A stretch of 56,398 bases of DNA, taken from the NCBI GenBank assembly GCA_034722055.1, contig JAYENL010000154.1, positions 24,444 through 80,841 of the forward strand, in the 5' to 3' direction. Shown piece after piece: positions 25,576 to 31,656 of this stretch. The DNA comes from Armatimonadota bacterium (lineage in GTDB: Bacteria > Armatimonadota > Zipacnadia > Zipacnadales > UBA5352). The position numbers and the translations under genes are program-made. How positions within the stretch are numbered: the first letter of the stretch is position 1; every line of letters starts with the position of its first letter. The notes under the pieces are model-generated. The model was given only the letters and a program-made list of their open reading frames with translations, was not told the origin of the DNA and did no database searches.

Positions 25576-26775
25576 ATGACACACCGGCAGCGGATCCTCG
25601 GCGCCATCCGCGGCGAGCCGGTGGACCGCGTGCCCTGGGTGCCCCGGCTCGACCTGTGGTACAAGGCCAACCGGACGCGCGGCACGCTGCCGGCCGAGTG
25701 GCGGGACCTGTCCCTGCCGGAGATCGCGGCCGATCTCGGCGTCGGCCGCCACGAGGTCATCCCGGACTTCCTCGACGTCGAGGAGCCCGATCAGATCGCC
25801 GACCAGTCGCTCGGCCTCGTTCACGTCCGCAATCAGCCCTACCGCCTGCGCTTCCGCCGCACCGAGCGCATCGTCGAGCGCGACACCTCCCCCGACGGCG
25901 ATACCTACCGGGTCACCTACCGCACGCCGGTCGGGTCGGTGACCACCATCCTCCACTACACCCGGCAGATGCGCCGCGACGGCGTCACGCTCCTGCACAC
26001 GTCCAAGCGGGCCATAGAGTCGCTGGAGGACTACGAGGTCATCGCCTTCCTGTTCGAGGACCTTGAGGTGGACCCGGGCGGGAGGTACGATGCCTTTCGC
26101 GAGGAGGTGGGCGATGAGGGCGTGGCGGTGGCCTTCGCCAACGTCGCCGGCTCGCCGATGCATCACCTCCTCAAGGAGTTGGTGCCCTACGATCAGTTCT
26201 ACTACGACCTGCATGACCATCCGGACCTGATGGCGGAGACCGCCGTCCGCATGCAGGGGCTGCTCCGGGATGTGGTGGAGGCCTGCGCGGCCAGCAGCGC
26301 GGAGGTCGTGATGCTGGGGGCCAATTACGACGTGATGCTCACGCCCCCGCCGCTGTTCGCCGAGCACGTCGCGCCCTTCCTGACCGAGGCCACGGCGCGC
26401 CTGCACGAGGCGGGGAAGCTGGTGGCAACACACACCGATGGCGAGAACCAGGGCCTCCTGGAGTTGTATGTACAGTGTGGGGTGGATGTGGCGGACTCGG
26501 TCTGCCCCGCGCCGATGACGAGGCTGCCGCTGGCCGAGTACCGGCGCGTCTTCGGGACCCGTCCGGCCATCTGGGGCGGGATATGCTCGGCCAGCGTGTT
26601 GCCCGACAGCTTCACCGACGAGGAGTTCGAGGCGCATGTGGATGCGGCCGTCGAGGCCGGCGGTGACATGCGGGGCATCATCTACTCCATCGCCGACACC
26701 ACCCCTCCGGATGCCTCGCTCGATCGCATTCGGCGAATCGGCGACCGGCTGGCGGCGGTGCCATGCACGGGGTGA
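25576..26775 (+). CDS. uroporphyrinogen-decarboxylase (URO-D)-like family protein (MtaA/O-demethylase-methyltransferase-like)
   Basis: 399 aa, divergent from the ior operon, with a strong GGGAGGGGG Shine-Dalgarno. Family call rests on overall URO-D-like pattern (N-terminal ILGAIRGEPVDRVPWVP; C-terminal TPP...). Function not specified. Confidence 0.55.
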   Translation: MTHRQRILGAIRGEPVDRVPWVPRLDLWYKANRTRGTLPAEWRDLSLPEIAADLGVGRHEVIPDFLDVEEPDQIADQSLGLVHVRNQPYRLRFRRTERIVERDTSPDGDTYRVTYRTPVGSVTTILHYTRQMRRDGVTLLHTSKRAIESLEDYEVIAFLFEDLEVDPGGRYDAFREEVGDEGVAVAFANVAGSPMHHLLKELVPYDQFYYDLHDHPDLMAETAVRMQGLLRDVVEACAASSAEVVMLGANYDVMLTPPPLFAEHVAPFLTEATARLHEAGKLVATHTDGENQGLLELYVQCGVDVADSVCPAPMTRLPLAEYRRVFGTRPAIWGGICSASVLPDSFTDEEFEAHVDAAVEAGGDMRGIIYSIADTTPPDASLDRIRRIGDRLAAVPCTG

Positions 26776-26850
26776 AGCGGATTTCGTTTGGCCCTCCGCC
26801 CCGGGGGTATATTACTCATAGGGGACGAATAAGAGGGTGTACAGGAGAAT

Positions 26851-27438
26851 ATGGGCATAATCAGTTGGCTGCGGCGCATTGTGGCTGACTTTTTTTGTGT
26901 CGGCGAGGACACGACTCGCGAGGCGGAGCAGGTGCGCGCCGAGCTCGAGGAGCTGCGAACCCTCGTGCTCCTCGCCGTCGCCCAGGCCCGCCGCACCGAG
27001 CTTGACCTCAGGGAGCTGCTGGATGAGGCTGAGCCCGACGTGCGGAAGCTGACCCTCGCCATGTCTCGGCTGGAGGTGGAGCGGGGCCGCGCGCGGGAGC
27101 TGGTGGACCGCTTCCGCCGCCGGGAGAGGGAGGCGGCGGACCGCCTCGCCAGGCTGGGCGACGTGCGTATGGCCGAGGAGATCAACCAGCGGCGAGATGA
27201 GCTGCGCAGGTCCATCGGGGAGACCGGGGAAGCTCTCGACAGGCAGGAGCTCACCCGCCTGGAGGACGAGGCGCGCGCCGAGGCGTATCGGCTGGATGTG
27301 CTGGAGCGGCTGGAGGCCGACAGCGAGACACCGGAGGCTGCGCCGTATACACCGCCGCCGAGTGAGGAGAATGTCATCTCCCGAGCGCGGGCGCTGCTGG
27401 AGGAGCCGAACATCGAGGAGCCCCTGTCCGAGGACTGA
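26851..27438 (+). CDS. coiled-coil protein, tentatively PspA/IM30-like
   Basis: 195 aa starting MGIISWLRRIV (compare PspA MGIFSRF...). Almost entirely heptad-like charged coiled-coil. Sits immediately upstream of the NfeD-like/flotillin pair. Confidence 0.45.
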   Translation: MGIISWLRRIVADFFCVGEDTTREAEQVRAELEELRTLVLLAVAQARRTELDLRELLDEAEPDVRKLTLAMSRLEVERGRARELVDRFRRREREAADRLARLGDVRMAEEINQRRDELRRSIGETGEALDRQELTRLEDEARAEAYRLDVLERLEADSETPEAAPYTPPPSEENVISRARALLEEPNIEEPLSED

Positions 27439-27486
27439 GTGCCCGGCTCGGGCCTGCAGTGGCGAGGTTGAGAGGAGGTTAGACCG

Positions 27487-28515
27487 ATGGCGTTGCTCGA
27501 ATGGTACAACTTGATCTTCGTGGCTCCCGTTGGTCTGGCCGGCGTCTACCTGGTCCTGAGCGCCACGAGCATTGGCGACCTGACCGGGGAGACGGATGTG
27601 GACACTGACGTGGATGCCGACCTCGACCACGACGTGGACCTGGGAATGGACCATGATGTGGACACGGACATGGACCATGACCTGGACCTGGACATGGATC
27701 ATGACGTCGATCTGGACATGGATCACGACGTTGATCTCGACATGGACCATGATGTCGATGTGGACATGGACCATGATGTTGATGTGGGGATGGACCACGA
27801 CCTCGACGTCGATCATGACATCGACATGGATCACGATGTGGATGTCGATCACGACGTTGAGCTCGGCCACGACGTAGACATGGACCATGACGTAGACATG
27901 GACCATGACGTGGACATGGACCACGATGTGGACGTCGGCCACGACGCCGATGTCGGTCACGACGCGGACCTCGGTCACGACGTGGAGGCCGAGCACGATC
28001 TGGAGGCCCACCACGAGGCGACCGTGCACGCCCATGAGCCGTCCCTCTTCCTCCGAGCCCTGTCGGTGCTTGGGTTCGGGAAGGTCCCGCTATCGATCCT
28101 GGGCACCTGTCTGATGGTGCTGTTCGGCGCCACGGGTCTGATCGCCAACGGGCTGTTCGAGCACGTGCTGCCCTGGGAGTGGGCGCCCACGGTCTACGTG
28201 TGGCCGTCACTGGCGCTTGCCGTCTTCGCGTCCCTGACGCTCACCGGCTCCATGGCCCGGGGGCTGCATCGGATTATGCCCACCCGCGAGACCTACGCGG
28301 TGGGCCCCGAGGACCTGGTGGGCCGGGTCGGCGTCCCCATCTACGGCATCAGCGCCGGGCGGCGGGGCGTGGTCCACGTCAAAGATGAGGGTGGCACTCT
28401 GCACCAGGTGATGGGCCGGTCGCTTGAGGGGGACCTCGCCAAGGGCGCAGAGGTCATCCTGGTACGCTACCATCCGAAGGGGGATTACTATGACCTCACA
28501 GCCTCGCCCCTGTAG
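27487..28515 (+). CDS. NfeD-like (YuaF-type) membrane protein with an inserted Asp/His-rich (DHDVDM)n repeat region
   Basis: N-terminal TM helix, then ~23 tandem hexapeptides, then 2-3 TM helices, then a C-terminal OB-fold-like segment (GRVGVPIYGISAGRRGVVHV...GAEVILVRYHP) typical of short NfeD proteins that pair with flotillins. Confidence 0.7.
   Translation: MALLEWYNLIFVAPVGLAGVYLVLSATSIGDLTGETDVDTDVDADLDHDVDLGMDHDVDTDMDHDLDLDMDHDVDLDMDHDVDLDMDHDVDVDMDHDVDVGMDHDLDVDHDIDMDHDVDVDHDVELGHDVDMDHDVDMDHDVDMDHDVDVGHDADVGHDADLGHDVEAEHDLEAHHEATVHAHEPSLFLRALSVLGFGKVPLSILGTCLMVLFGATGLIANGLFEHVLPWEWAPTVYVWPSLALAVFASLTLTGSMARGLHRIMPTRETYAVGPEDLVGRVGVPIYGISAGRRGVVHVKDEGGTLHQVMGRSLEGDLAKGAEVILVRYHPKGDYYDLTASPL
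27592..28012 (+). repeat. in-frame tandem 18-bp repeat (consensus gaccatgacgtggacatg) encoding (M)DHDVD hexapeptides, ~23 units
   Basis: Directly visible in the sequence. Units vary by point substitutions (D/G, V/L/I, M/L/V), giving an Asp/His-rich acidic stretch. Confidence 0.9.
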
Positions 28516-28675
28516 GGGCCGCGGGGGAGGATGGCTGTCAGCGCCGGTAACGCCCCTGGCCCTGAAGATGTCCCGGCGGCCGGGAACCGCGAACGTACAT
28601 CCTCCGCCCCGGACAGCGGGCGTTTGCGACCAGCCGCGAACGTACGCAAACACAGACTGATGGAGGGGAACACTG

Positions 28676-30682
28676 ATGGCCCTACCGATAGGAATGGTGT
28701 TGCTGGGCATGGCGCTGGTGATCGGGCCGTGGACGGTCGAGGGCCTGAACCCGATAACACAGATGATCCTCACGGTCATCGGCGCCGGGGTGCTCGTGGC
28801 CTCGGCGGTGCTGATCATCATCGCCAAGCTCTACCAGCGAACCGCCGCCAACGAGGCCTTCGTGCGCACGGGCATGGGGGGACGCTCCGTGGTGCTGGAC
28901 GGCGGCGCCATCGTCATCCCGGTGATGCACAAGACCGTCCCGGTCGTGCTGGAGAGCATGAAGCTGGAGGTGGAGCGCGGGGGCGAGGACGCGCTGATCA
29001 CCCGCGACAACCTCCGCTGCGACATCCGCGCCGAGTTCTACATCAAGGTCCAGGCTGTGAAGGACGACATCCTCAACGCGTCCCGATCGCTCGGCGACCG
29101 GTCCATCAACGCCGCGGCGGTCAGGGACCTGGTCTTCGAGAAGCTGGTCTCCGCCCTGCGCTCAGTCGCGGCCACCCGCGAGCTGGCACAGCTTCACGCC
29201 GAGCGCGACGACTTCGCCACCGCAGTGTCCGAGCTGGTGCGCGAGGACCTCAAGTCCAACGGCCTGACGCTGGAGTCAGTGACCATCTCGCGGCTGGACC
29301 AGACCGACACCTCGCGGCTGAACGAGCAGAACGTGTTCGACGCCCAAGGCCTGCGCAAGATCGCCGAGATCACCCAGCAGGCGCGCGTGGAGCGGAACAT
29401 GTACGAGCGCGACGCCGAGCGCCAGATCACGCAGAAGAACGTGGACACCCGCAAGGAAGTGCTGGACCTGGAGAAGGAGCAGGCTGAGGCCGAGGCCACT
29501 CAGCAGGCGGACGTGGCCATGATCCGCTCCGAGCGGCGCCAGCAGGCCGAGACCTACGACATCGAGCAGCGCCGCATCGTCGAGACCAAGGATATCGACA
29601 AGGAGCGGCAGGTCCAGGAGGCTGGCGTGCAGCGCGACCTGATGGTGAACATCGCCAAGGTCCAGGCGGAGAAGGACCTCATCGCCAAGCAGCAGGAGCA
29701 GCAGACCGCGGACATCCTGCGCAACCAGGCCATCCAGACCGCCGACGTGGAGCGCGAGCGCGCCGTTGAGGTCACGCAGCGCGAGCGGCAGATCGCGGTG
29801 GCCGAGGCCGAGCAGCGCCGCGCCACTGCCGAGCAGGAGCAACTGCTGGCCGAGGCCCAGCGCGAGCAGGCCGAGCAGGAGGTCATCACCGTTGAGGAGG
29901 TCGCCACTGCCGACCGTCAGAAGCAGGTGCAGGTGATCGCCGCCGAGCAGTCGGCCGAGCAGGAGAAGATCAAGGAGCAGATGGAGGCCGACATCGTCGC
30001 CTACAAGAACGCCAAGGTCGCCGAGGGCGAGCAGGAGGCGGCCACCCGCCTCGCCGAGGCCATCCGCACCAAGGCCGAGGCCGAGCGCGACGCCGCCAGA
30101 CTCGCCGCCGAGGGCGAAGAGGCCAAGCAGATGGTGCCTGTCAACGTCAACCGTCAGCAGGTGGCCGTGGACGCCCAGCGCGTGCACGACGTCGATGCCG
30201 CCAGCGTTGAGGTGCTGCGCAGCGAGCTGGCCGCCAAGGCCGAGTACGAGCAGATCTCGGTCGAGCTCGAGAAGGTCCTGGCCGACATCGCGGCCCGCAA
30301 GGACGTCGGGGTCGCCTTCGCCCACTCCGTTGGCGAGGCCCTCAGCCACGCCGACATGAACCTCTACGGAGAGCCCGCGATGCTGGGCACGGCCCTGGAG
30401 TCCTTTGCCAAGGCCGCAGGTGTCAGCGCCTGGGCCGATGGGCTCGTCAGCACACTGCCTGAGGGCACCATCGAGACCGCGGCGTCAACCCTCTCTGGCG
30501 CCTTCCCCCAGCTCCGCGAGGTGCTCGACAACGTCATCGCCGACCACCGCGCGCGCGGTGGCGACGTCGAGAAGGCCGCAGAGGCCTACGCCGAGGCCGA
30601 CGGCGGCTGGGAGGCCGAGGAGCCGGTGAAGGAGAATCCCGGTTCCGCCGAGAAGGGTAACGCGCCCGAGGACCCGAGTTGA
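28676..30682 (+). CDS. floT: flotillin-family (SPFH/band-7) protein with a long EA-rich coiled-coil
   Basis: N-terminal TM + SPFH domain (RTGMGGRSVVLDGGAIVIPVMHKTVPVVLESMKLEV...ITRDNLRCDIRAEFYIKV). Followed by ~350 aa of A/E/Q/R-rich heptads. Confidence 0.85.
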   Translation: MALPIGMVLLGMALVIGPWTVEGLNPITQMILTVIGAGVLVASAVLIIIAKLYQRTAANEAFVRTGMGGRSVVLDGGAIVIPVMHKTVPVVLESMKLEVERGGEDALITRDNLRCDIRAEFYIKVQAVKDDILNASRSLGDRSINAAAVRDLVFEKLVSALRSVAATRELAQLHAERDDFATAVSELVREDLKSNGLTLESVTISRLDQTDTSRLNEQNVFDAQGLRKIAEITQQARVERNMYERDAERQITQKNVDTRKEVLDLEKEQAEAEATQQADVAMIRSERRQQAETYDIEQRRIVETKDIDKERQVQEAGVQRDLMVNIAKVQAEKDLIAKQQEQQTADILRNQAIQTADVERERAVEVTQRERQIAVAEAEQRRATAEQEQLLAEAQREQAEQEVITVEEVATADRQKQVQVIAAEQSAEQEKIKEQMEADIVAYKNAKVAEGEQEAATRLAEAIRTKAEAERDAARLAAEGEEAKQMVPVNVNRQQVAVDAQRVHDVDAASVEVLRSELAAKAEYEQISVELEKVLADIAARKDVGVAFAHSVGEALSHADMNLYGEPAMLGTALESFAKAAGVSAWADGLVSTLPEGTIETAASTLSGAFPQLREVLDNVIADHRARGGDVEKAAEAYAEADGGWEAEEPVKENPGSAEKGNAPEDPS

Positions 30683-30711
30683 CGGTTCGGTCATGACGTC
30701 AGGCGCATCAC

Positions 30712-30739
30712 GGGGGACGCGGCGTGTCCCGCGTCCCCC
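30712..30739 (+). terminator. strong GC hairpin (GGGGGACGCGG-CGTGT-CCGCGTCCCCC) followed by GTTGGT; likely terminator after the flotillin gene
   Basis: 11-bp perfect stem seen in the sequence 30 bp after the flotillin stop. The U-tract is weak. Confidence 0.4.
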
Positions 30740-30783
30740 GTTGGTACCATACAGGCCTTACAGGCGTGCCGGAGTGCGCTATC

Positions 30784-31398
30784 ATGCTCATGCAGTGGCT
30801 CATAATGGCAGCGACCGTCGGGGCCTTCGCTGCCTGCCTGTACATGTGGTCATCCGCCGAGCAGCTTCCCGAGCGGTGGCACCGGCTCTTCCGCCTGGGA
30901 TCGTGGGGAGCCATTCTCGGCGCCCCCGTTGGCGCCTCCGCTCAGTGGCTGCTGCAGCACGACGGCCGCTGGTGGGAGCTCTCTACGCTCTCCGATCCCT
31001 CGCAGCGCATTGGTTTGATCCTGGGGGCGATGGCCGGATCGACGCTCGCCTGCCGGCTGGCGAAGCTCGACATCCGCGAGGCTTTCCAGATGGCAGCCAC
31101 GGCTCTCTCGCCCTACCTGCTGGGGCTCGCCGCGGGAGCCGGCCTGGCCGGCCACCTCTACGCCTTCTTCATGATCGACGCCTGGGAGGCCCCGATAGCC
31201 TACCGGCAGCACGTCATGCACACCCTCGCCGGCGCATACATCATCCTCTCGCTCGCCGCCGCCACGCTCTTCAGCCTCGGCTTCACCGGCCGCGTCTGGC
31301 GCATCTGGGGGGCCGCGGTCCCCGAGGATGTCGAGCTGCTGGCCCTCCAGCCTCTGGACCTCGAGGCCGAGCCCGAGGAGACTGAGGCCCAGGCCTGA
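30784..31398 (+). CDS. small integral membrane protein (4-5 TM), unknown function
   Basis: Hydrophobic segments (MLMQWLIMAATVGAFAACLYMW..., ILGAMAGSTLAC..., AGAGLAGHLYAFFMI...). Start moved downstream of the terminator hairpin. Confidence 0.45.
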   Translation: MLMQWLIMAATVGAFAACLYMWSSAEQLPERWHRLFRLGSWGAILGAPVGASAQWLLQHDGRWWELSTLSDPSQRIGLILGAMAGSTLACRLAKLDIREAFQMAATALSPYLLGLAAGAGLAGHLYAFFMIDAWEAPIAYRQHVMHTLAGAYIILSLAAATLFSLGFTGRVWRIWGAAVPEDVELLALQPLDLEAEPEETEAQA

Positions 31399-31656
31399 CC
31401 TGCCTTCCCCTCAGCGTGCAGGCTCCCGCCCTCGCGTGGCGAAACGCCTCCTGTGAGTGCGCAGATGCTGCACGTGAGGGAGCGAGGTCAGCATGATCGA
31501 GCGGTTCACCATCAGCCGCGACGACTCCATCTACGAGTGCTTCCGCGCCGTCCCCCTCACCCTGTCCATCCCGTTCCGGAGCCGTCGGCGTTCAGCCGTG
31601 GTCGTATCTCGTTGATCGCCGCCGTTCGCCTATCTGCCGTTGAGGAGGAGCCACAC

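Follow-up and report, generated by a model that had tools for sequence, protein, structure and literature searches.

Flotillin partners of the NfeD type

Roles proposed for bacterial flotillins and their NfeD partners include scaffolding, the stabilisation of unfolded proteins and the regulation of proteases. In Escherichia coli (E. coli), YqiJ is the 'NfeD2' partner of the flotillin YqiK (Hinderhofer et al. 2009, PMC2636767). The present analysis concerns a relative of YqiJ encoded in a 56,398-nt stretch of the Armatimonadota contig JAYENL010000154.1 (the window, in whose positions all coordinates are given), and more particularly an Asp/His-rich tandem array at 27592-28012, which is contained in a single plus-strand open reading frame (ORF; 27487..28515) of 342 aa. 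YqiJ/NfeD2 flotillin partners are already known, and what is new at this locus is the extreme expansion of the loop between the first and second transmembrane (TM) helices.

E. coli YqiJ and the 342-aa protein both have three TM helices and a C-terminal OB domain, a conserved motif before TM2 and a TM1-TM2 loop containing His and Asp, and in both cases the gene lies directly 5' of that of a YqiK-type flotillin. The loop of E. coli YqiJ comprises ~24 irregular residues, whereas here ~156 aa are organised in regular 8- and 6-residue repeats. The classical short NfeD proteins, which include P. horikoshii PH1510-C (3WWV), a C. glutamicum protein (3CP0), B. subtilis YuaF (2K14) and E. coli YbbJ, differ from the 342-aa protein in that the classical NfeD profile, PF01957, found no match in it even at E values up to 10, although its predicted five-stranded OB fold can be superposed on solved NfeD C-terminal OB domains. 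A preliminary description had called the protein NfeD-like; this holds in the sense of a YqiJ/'NfeD2' protein with an NfeD-type OB fold, and fails for the classical profile. Among NfeD-type proteins, the D/H-rich loop characterises the YqiJ branch, and it is not known from YbbJ or YuaF.

In RcnA, the Ni/Co exporter of E. coli, a low-complexity H/D/E loop (HGHDYEHHHHDHEHHHDHGHHHHHEH) likewise lies between TM helices, and the His-rich loops of RcnA and of the CDF and ZIP transporters bind or sense the transported metal. These transporters have an unrelated fold and belong to unrelated families, and only they possess a transport domain; Pfam and NCBIfam searches assigned the 342-aa protein to no metal-transporter family, its architecture being three TM helices plus an OB domain. 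Compared with the transporter loops, His is periodic in the present array (every 6-8 residues) and not clustered, and Asp outnumbers His by about 3:1. The (x-D)n periodicity is shared with the Ser-Asp repeats of SdrC, SdrD, ClfA and ClfB, and because of this common dipeptide periodicity NCBIfam reported Ser-Asp repeat adhesins (MSCRAMM) at E values of 1e-14 to 8e-11; these matches reached 40-53 bits against cut-offs of 999-2500 and were rejected as compositional only. The staphylococcal MSCRAMM Ser-Asp repeats are extracellular stalks of wall-anchored proteins.

Identity and architecture of the host protein

The array very probably forms the TM1-TM2 loop of a YqiJ-family protein ('NfeD2') that acts as partner to a YqiK-type flotillin, because the YqiJ_N profile is matched once the array is removed, the OB domain superposes on those of NfeD proteins, a YqiK-type flotillin gene adjoins and the gene order is conserved. 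The intact 342-aa protein gave zero Pfam matches at an E-value limit of 0.01, and an exact-sequence look-up returned no identical database record. With the array excised, YqiJ_N (PF21001) was matched with 34.9 bits (E 2e-8; cut-off 23 bits) over positions 16-115 of the 116 in the profile, and close homologues carry the same family in their precomputed annotation; it is thus because of the array that the intact protein escapes Pfam. Since this match spans TM1 to TM3, the array lies within the YqiJ_N domain, between TM1 and TM2, which differs from its earlier placement after the TM helices and ahead of the OB fold. E. coli YqiJ carries both PF21001 and PF07290 (YqiJ_OB), whereas the array-excised protein remained under the gathering score of the latter (16-16.9 bits against a cut-off of 25.4). 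An hhalign comparison of the clade alignment (A1) with E. coli YqiJ gave an E value of 7.9e-5 and a probability of 61% over 130 columns, extending from TM2 through the OB domain.

An AlphaFold2 (AF2) model of the protein, built from a 14-sequence alignment, contains helices at residues 2-31, 187-197, 202-224 and 230-263, followed by a confidently predicted five-stranded C-terminal barrel with strands over residues 281-336 (predicted local distance difference test, pLDDT, 81-91). Three TM helices and then a soluble beta-barrel are the layout of the YqiJ family, and alignment A1 shows a conserved R-x-M-P-T-x-E-T-Y motif in the segment that follows TM3. Residues 28-200 have pLDDT values <50 and are without secondary structure in the model, and the TM1-TM2 loop is predicted to be intrinsically disordered.

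The flotillin link suggested in the preliminary description was supported, as the gene directly downstream encodes a protein with a Pfam Band_7 match (E 2.6e-18) and 36% identity to E. coli YqiK across 452 aa (E 7e-74). In tblastn-based synteny comparisons, a flotillin gene was found directly 3' of the YqiJ-like gene in 14/14 related loci.

The D/E/H-rich loop across the YqiJ family

A family profile made from the repeat-free C-terminal part was searched against 1.84 billion cluster representatives and returned 1144 members at E <= 0.001; loop statistics were taken from 132 of the best 150 of these matches, namely those with an intact N-terminus. In this set the TM1-TM2 loop has a median length of 44.5 aa (interquartile range 37-54, maximum 116), a median D+E+H fraction of 0.43 and a median K+R fraction of 0, and acidic residues recur at i+2 with a frequency of 0.54, the median at i+1 being 0.00. 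The D+E+H fraction was at least 0.30 in 125/132 representatives, and a D/E/H-rich TM1-TM2 loop is therefore a hallmark of nearly the whole YqiJ family; the uniqueness implied when the array was first noted does not hold. With ~156 aa, 58% D+E+H, no K/R and an i+2 D frequency of 0.85, the loop of the 342-aa protein is the longest and most regular among the sequences compared, but as the extreme end of a continuum. Loops of mixed composition (HDIDHDIDHDVHHDFDHDHDL..., DADVDVDVDVDVGVDAD..., GHDLDHDVDHDLDHDVDHDL...) occur in the family together with loops of the His/Gly-only (GHGHGHGIGHGGGSHG...) and Asp-only (DADVDVDADVSVDVDVDMDVD...) types. Almost all members of the YqiJ branch of NfeD partners thus have a loop in which metal-ligand residues abound and K/R are lacking.

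A search with the array alone in 5.8 billion proteins gave 13 matches. Those with enough sequence to judge were all small membrane proteins of the TM-repeat-TM-OB type, the rest being short or frameshifted fragments, and some of the matches were without any Pfam hit. The contigs of two array-only matches (P0169 and P0174) and of an Armatimonadota ortholog (P0012) were examined, and in 3/3 the gene lies directly 5' of one or two Band_7/flotillin genes. P0169 and P0174, which come from other lineages (L018 6001-9448; L020 4492-6478), have no Pfam hit and still stand directly 5' of flotillin genes, from which it follows that the TM-loop-TM-OB plus flotillin module is broader than PF21001 now captures. 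The flotillin genes at L018 are two tandem Band_7 paralogues. Literature searches for NfeD together with histidine-rich, or for YqiJ/DUF1449, found no paper on the loop in the titles, abstracts and passages returned, and the family-wide D/E/H-rich loop appears to be undiscussed.

Repeat structure and divergence of the array

Codon-by-codon reading of residues 35-180 gives 59 D, 21 H, 22 V, 11 M, 10 L and zero K/R. The preliminary description counted ~23 uniform hexapeptides in a perfect array; the units instead follow the order acidic lead-in, seven octapeptides (24 bp), 11 regular hexapeptides (18 bp) and a degenerate His/Glu tail (Table 1). Tandem Repeats Finder (TRF) detected a period of 24 with 8.5 copies (77% matches, score 182), a period of 18 with 8.7 copies (76% matches, score 118) and a higher-order period of 90 bp (score 231), so the tandem repetition is far beyond chance. 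An in-frame Asp/His array is therefore real, and its perfection is not, as TRF matches range from 64 to 85% across the periods and none of the 21 octapeptide-unit pairs or 66 hexapeptide-unit pairs is identical in DNA. Octapeptide units share a mean pairwise DNA identity of 0.78 and hexapeptide units one of 0.69, and the longest exact repeated word has 23 nt (at 27871 and 27889), which does not agree with a near-perfect minisatellite. Differences between units are mostly synonymous (CAC/CAT, GAC/GAT, GTG/GTC/GTT/GTA). The three HDVDMD units at 27868-27921 are probably the most recent duplication.

The array has a GC content of 0.58 compared with 0.686 for the whole window, and a third-position GC of 0.75 compared with 0.90 in neighbouring genes. 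In a codon-bias test, neither the GAT fraction (0.32 in the array, 0.24 in background genes, p = 0.23) nor the CAT fraction (0.39 and 0.23, p = 0.12) differed significantly.

Relatives, turnover of units and selection

Among 185,579 species genomes, the closest loci were found in metagenome-assembled genomes (MAGs) of Armatimonadota (Armatimonadia and 'Zipacnadia') and in one MAG of candidate division WS1, and more distant ones in Myxococcota and Phycisphaerae. The Planctomycetota origin suggested initially is not supported, as the 12 closest loci all belong to Armatimonadota or candidate division WS1 MAGs. The in-frame D/H repeat array is present in 12 related MAGs, so that it is no assembly artefact, and all full-length orthologues have an in-frame D/H repeat loop of ~60-150 residues.

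The expectation that array length would vary was borne out, since close relatives differ by whole units. At the nearest locus (L001), the flotillin is 95% and a URO-D-like neighbour 92% identical, and alignment of the 342-aa protein with its L001 counterpart contains exactly two gaps, one of 16 aa (two octapeptides) and one of 12 aa (two hexapeptides), both in the array; L001 is two hexapeptide units shorter around 27868..27921. P0009 and the L007 protein, which are 98.9% identical, are separated by gaps of 12 and 8 aa inside the loop, and the L011 and L012 proteins (94.6% identical) by a single 6-aa gap, or one hexapeptide, also inside the loop. All loop indels observed among relatives are in frame and comprise whole units, so that unit number turns over on a strain-to-species time scale.

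Compared with L001, the repeat shows 34 synonymous and 15 non-synonymous codon differences, and the C-terminal part 38 and 14. With these similar ratios, the repeat peptide is as constrained as the folded part, which shows purifying selection. Across 16 orthologues, units of six (n=98) and eight (n=43) residues predominate. Of the units, 90-95% have D directly after the H at position 1, and no other unit position is conserved as well as this H and D; aliphatic residues take the alternate positions. Selection keeps the peptide, with its alternation of H, D and aliphatic residues, while the DNA units have diverged. The loop reached ~156 residues in this lineage of Armatimonadota as H-D-x-D units of 8 and 6 residues were duplicated in tandem, an enlargement of about 3.5-fold under purifying selection.

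In practical terms, the array prevents Pfam from recognising the protein, and in related genomes it disrupts both assembly and gene calling. At L006 (6001-7015, CAZTZN010000118.1), a run of N interrupts the array, and as a result the gene call behind the database protein from this locus (P0001) lacks the N-terminus and begins downstream of the array; array lengths from short-read MAGs should be treated with caution. The orthologues from L003, L004, L005, L008 and L009 carry an extra Ser/Ala/Arg/Glu-rich tail of 40-50 residues after the ...SPL end of the OB domain, which is absent from the 342-aa protein and from L001.

Table 1. Features of the YqiJ-like gene, its repeat array and the adjoining genes, in positions of the window.
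Feature	Position	Strand	Basis
195-aa all-helical coiled-coil gene	26851..27438	+	ORF, tblastn synteny, AF2 helices
GGAGG ribosome-binding site, 8 nt 5' of the ATG at 27487	27474..27478	+	Read from sequence
YqiJ-family (DUF1449 / 'NfeD2') three-helix membrane protein, 342 aa	27487..28515	+	ORF, YqiJ_N match, homologues
TM1, ~residues 7-29, with conserved W-x-N-L-I-F	27505..27573	+	Alignment A1, AF2 helix 2-31
Acidic lead-in DLTGETDVDTDVDADLD, (x-D)n without His	27574..27627	+	Codon reading
Sub-array 1, 7 octapeptides HDVD[LVT][DG]MD, 24 bp each	27628..27795	+	Codon table, TRF, unit identity 0.78
Sub-array 2, 11 hexapeptides HD[VLIA][DE][VMLA][DGE], 18 bp each	27796..27993	+	Codon table, TRF, unit identity 0.69
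Three near-identical HDVDMD units	27868..27921	+	94% identity to each neighbour; 23-nt exact repeat
Degenerate His/Glu-rich loop tail HDLEAHHEATVHAHEP	27994..28041	+	Codon reading
Conserved amphipathic helix LRALSVLGFGKVP and TM2, residues 187-224	28045..28158	+	Invariant A1 columns, AF2 helices, YqiJ_N positions 53-115
TM3 and basic post-TM segment RGLHRIMPTRETY, residues 230-263	28174..28275	+	AF2 helix 230-263
C-terminal NfeD-type OB fold, residues ~272-340	28300..28506	+	AF2 barrel superposed on NfeD OB domains
YqiK-type flotillin, 668 aa, SPFH/Band_7 and long coiled coil, presumed partner	28676..30682	+	Pfam, YqiK identity
224-aa predicted membrane protein, just 3' of the flotillin	30724-31398	+	ORF, synteny

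Possible functions of the loop

Sites of Lys and Arg near the TM helices are confined to the segment before TM2 (R190, K199) and that after TM3 (RGLHRIMPTR), and both the N-terminus and the TM2-TM3 turn are free of these residues. Under the positive-inside rule, this distribution would put both loop and OB domain on the cytoplasmic face of the membrane, where the flotillin SPFH domain also lies. The cage of the related QmcA-YbbJ complex protrudes into the cytoplasm, as summarised in PMC13086221. SPFH-NfeD complexes are large cages, and many loops, each a disordered His-studded polyanion, would therefore be concentrated at one flotillin assembly. It is proposed that the loop binds divalent cations (Fe2+, Zn2+, Ni2+ or Mn2+, or bulk Mg2+ or Ca2+) with low affinity and high capacity, that the flotillin microdomain would in this way act as a local cation buffer or sensor, and that the copy number of the repeats would set capacity or reach and not an on/off state. 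To this reading, the one favoured here, in which the loop is a cytoplasmic, low-affinity and high-capacity divalent-cation-binding tether at the flotillin assembly, we assign a probability of roughly 0.4.

Cation binding is suggested by the metal-ligand side chains that the Asp-only, His/Gly-only and mixed loops of the family have in common, as well as by the RcnA loop and by precedents from a model peptide, Shewanella and a silver screen. The peptide Ac-HDHDHDHDH binds Fe(II) at 6.3 uM, Zn(II) at 0.18 uM and Mn(II) at 84 uM, and was the best Fe(II) ligand of six His-rich peptides (PMC11938343). Deletion of the YqiK-type flotillin SO1377 of Shewanella lowered free iron detectable by electron paramagnetic resonance threefold and reduced siderophore output, and its DUF1449 neighbour, SO1376, had earlier been proposed as a metallochaperone (PMC1468410). 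In an E. coli silver screen, yqiJ was among the hits (PMC6071238). The loop could connect flotillin microdomains to cation homeostasis, and its family-wide occurrence makes a cation- or charge-related role of flotillin-NfeD2 systems directly testable.

Several points weigh against cation binding. Transition metals would occupy few sites of micromolar affinity in a normal cytoplasm, and the His residues of the array, with their spacing of 6-8 residues, are unlike those of the HDHDHD model peptide. The family has no universal ligand set, as 8/132 loops are without His and 6/132 nearly without Asp. No metal-homeostasis genes were seen in the conserved neighbourhood, here or in the other lineages examined, and a neighbourhood search found no metal genes near HD-repeat proteins of other lineages. 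The cytoplasmic placement of the loop is itself derived from the positive-inside rule and from analogy, and the loop's additional length, unlike its composition, could be of no selective consequence.

A more elaborate version of the cation-binding proposal, which we consider doubtful, is that ~20-30 YqiJ protomers project their ~150-residue loops beneath the YqiK cage and so create a membrane-attached buffer compartment for cations (Fe2+/Zn2+/Mg2+) or protons. Roughly 1,500 carboxylates and 500 imidazoles would then be held in a closed, protein-bounded cytoplasmic space, with a buffer capacity tuned by repeat copy number. If this is true, bacterial flotillin-NfeD2 systems would have a definite task in ion handling, and the iron phenotype of the Shewanella flotillin mutant would be accounted for.

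The same chemistry could also serve as a charge or pH switch, in which the His/Asp polyelectrolyte senses cytoplasmic acidification or the loss of proton-motive force, and this we regard as unlikely while giving it some weight. With neutral His, the loop would be an extended polyanion repelled by the anionic membrane, and protonation of His would convert it into a collapsing polyampholyte that alters YqiJ-flotillin packing. The H-D pair opening almost every unit, the near-neutral pKa of His in the HD peptide (PMC11938343) and the predicted disorder of the loop are consistent with such a switch, and the His/Gly-only loops of the family would titrate too. It would also fit a membrane-stress role of PspA/flotillin operons, YqiJ/YuaF-flotillin operons having been tied to PspA-type envelope-stress systems (PMC11237479). 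However, Asp-only loops without His (P0165, P0151, P0041 and others) cannot titrate near neutral pH, and the 195-aa gene upstream is not demonstrably a PspA.

If, on the other hand, only net charge and length matter, the loop would be a non-specific polyanionic spacer or holdase, that is, an entropic, electrostatic bristle that occupies the space beneath the flotillin assembly or controls access to it, or a segment that keeps unfolded clients soluble, as poly-D/E regions do elsewhere. Extreme negative charge, the lack of K/R, predicted disorder and a length that varies freely through unit indels all agree with this, and S. aureus FloA-NfeD stabilises unfolded proteins without ATP (PMC11222466), although the NfeD of S. 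aureus is a different, six-TM protein. Net charge would not explain why His is kept at a fixed unit position, why the alternating aliphatic residues are conserved as well, or why the P0046 loop contains 19% H and 2% D, and we judge this explanation to be as unlikely as the pH switch.

Slightly less probable again is a mostly neutral expansion, with a short functional D/H core to which ~100 extra residues were added as tolerated products of slippage or unequal recombination. Loops within Armatimonadota (~60-156 aa) exceed the family median, E. coli manages with its ~24 loop residues, and unit indels are frequent between relatives that are 95-99% identical. Against this, the repeat and the folded C-terminal part have equal synonymous to non-synonymous ratios, the units are old enough to have diverged synonymously while the peptide consensus was kept, and long loops are maintained throughout the Armatimonadota clade.

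It is improbable that the repeat folds upon oligomerisation, its 6-/8-residue alternation forming a beta-helix or a stack of beta-sheets that may be bridged by cations. D at every second residue (i+2 frequency 0.85) would suit such a fold, and the only Pfam match of the array alone was Gp5_trimer_C, the octapeptide repeat of the T4 gp5 C-terminal beta-helix, which was not significant and far under threshold (E 0.032; 14.8 bits against a cut-off of 30.9). AF2 shows zero strands and pLDDT values of 30-45 throughout, a face made up of Asp alone would strongly repel itself unless counter-ions were present, and family loops with G/A at alternate positions cannot make a hydrophobic core. Finally, a hypermutable minisatellite serving slipped-strand contingency, as proposed initially, or an assembly artefact, is largely refuted and very improbable despite the whole-unit differences between close relatives and the N run in the L006 array, since no units are identical and no exact repeat exceeds 23 nt, 18- and 24-bp units inside an ORF are multiples of 3 and cannot switch expression (all changes being in frame), the 12 MAGs with orthologous in-frame arrays were assembled independently, and purifying selection acts on the repeat at the protein level.

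Gene neighbourhood

The trio of coiled-coil gene, YqiJ-like gene and flotillin gene is kept in 11/12 of the closest Armatimonadota/WS1 loci, and the twelfth (L010) ends just upstream of the YqiJ-like gene. This arrangement is reminiscent of the PspA, flotillin and YqiJ/YuaF operons described in PMC11237479, in which a YqiJ-type three-TM gene likewise precedes the flotillin gene and a helical coiled-coil gene lies upstream. Unlike in those operons, the upstream 195-aa protein is not recognisable as PspA by Pfam, hhalign or Foldseek, and no CesT/Tir or AAA+ gene was seen here. The 195-aa protein has no Pfam or NCBIfam family and no PspA_IM30 match in Pfam at E values up to 10, hhalign with E. 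coli PspA aligned only the first 11 residues (probability 0.4%), and a profile search of the PDB gave no support for a PspA identity. Its N-terminus, MGIISWLRRIV, resembles the N-terminal amphipathic helix of PspA, MGIFSRFADIV. An AF2 model from the single sequence contains a short helix, a long hairpin and three more helices, in a layout as in PspA/Vipp1/ESCRT-III; Foldseek searches with it gave a best E value of 0.16 and hits to Vipp1 filaments at E 0.36-0.7, which are not significant, and the predicted PspA/Vipp1-like layout is taken as a lead only.

On the other side of the flotillin gene, the 224-aa predicted membrane protein, for which Pfam and NCBIfam returned no family, is kept 3' of the flotillin in five relatives (L001, L003, L006, L008 and L009), and in L007 a 37%-identical counterpart sits 5' of the trio. 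The 224-aa protein may belong to the gene cluster as a fourth member.

The spacer between the stop of the YqiJ-like gene and the start of the flotillin gene (28516-28675) measures 160 bp, compared with 26 bp in E. coli yqiJ-yqiK, and sites resembling a promoter or a terminator are absent from it, as are Rfam matches. A promoter and terminator scan of 26600-31500 found nothing convincing between the coiled-coil, YqiJ-like and flotillin genes, and Rfam detected zero families in the whole window. Two antisense ORFs of 407 aa (26812..28035, minus strand) and 243 aa (27479..28210, minus strand) span the array and the upstream gene; their translations are of low complexity, for example His/Val-rich or Arg/Pro/Gly-rich, and they look like artefacts of GC-rich repetitive DNA that could be mis-called as genes.

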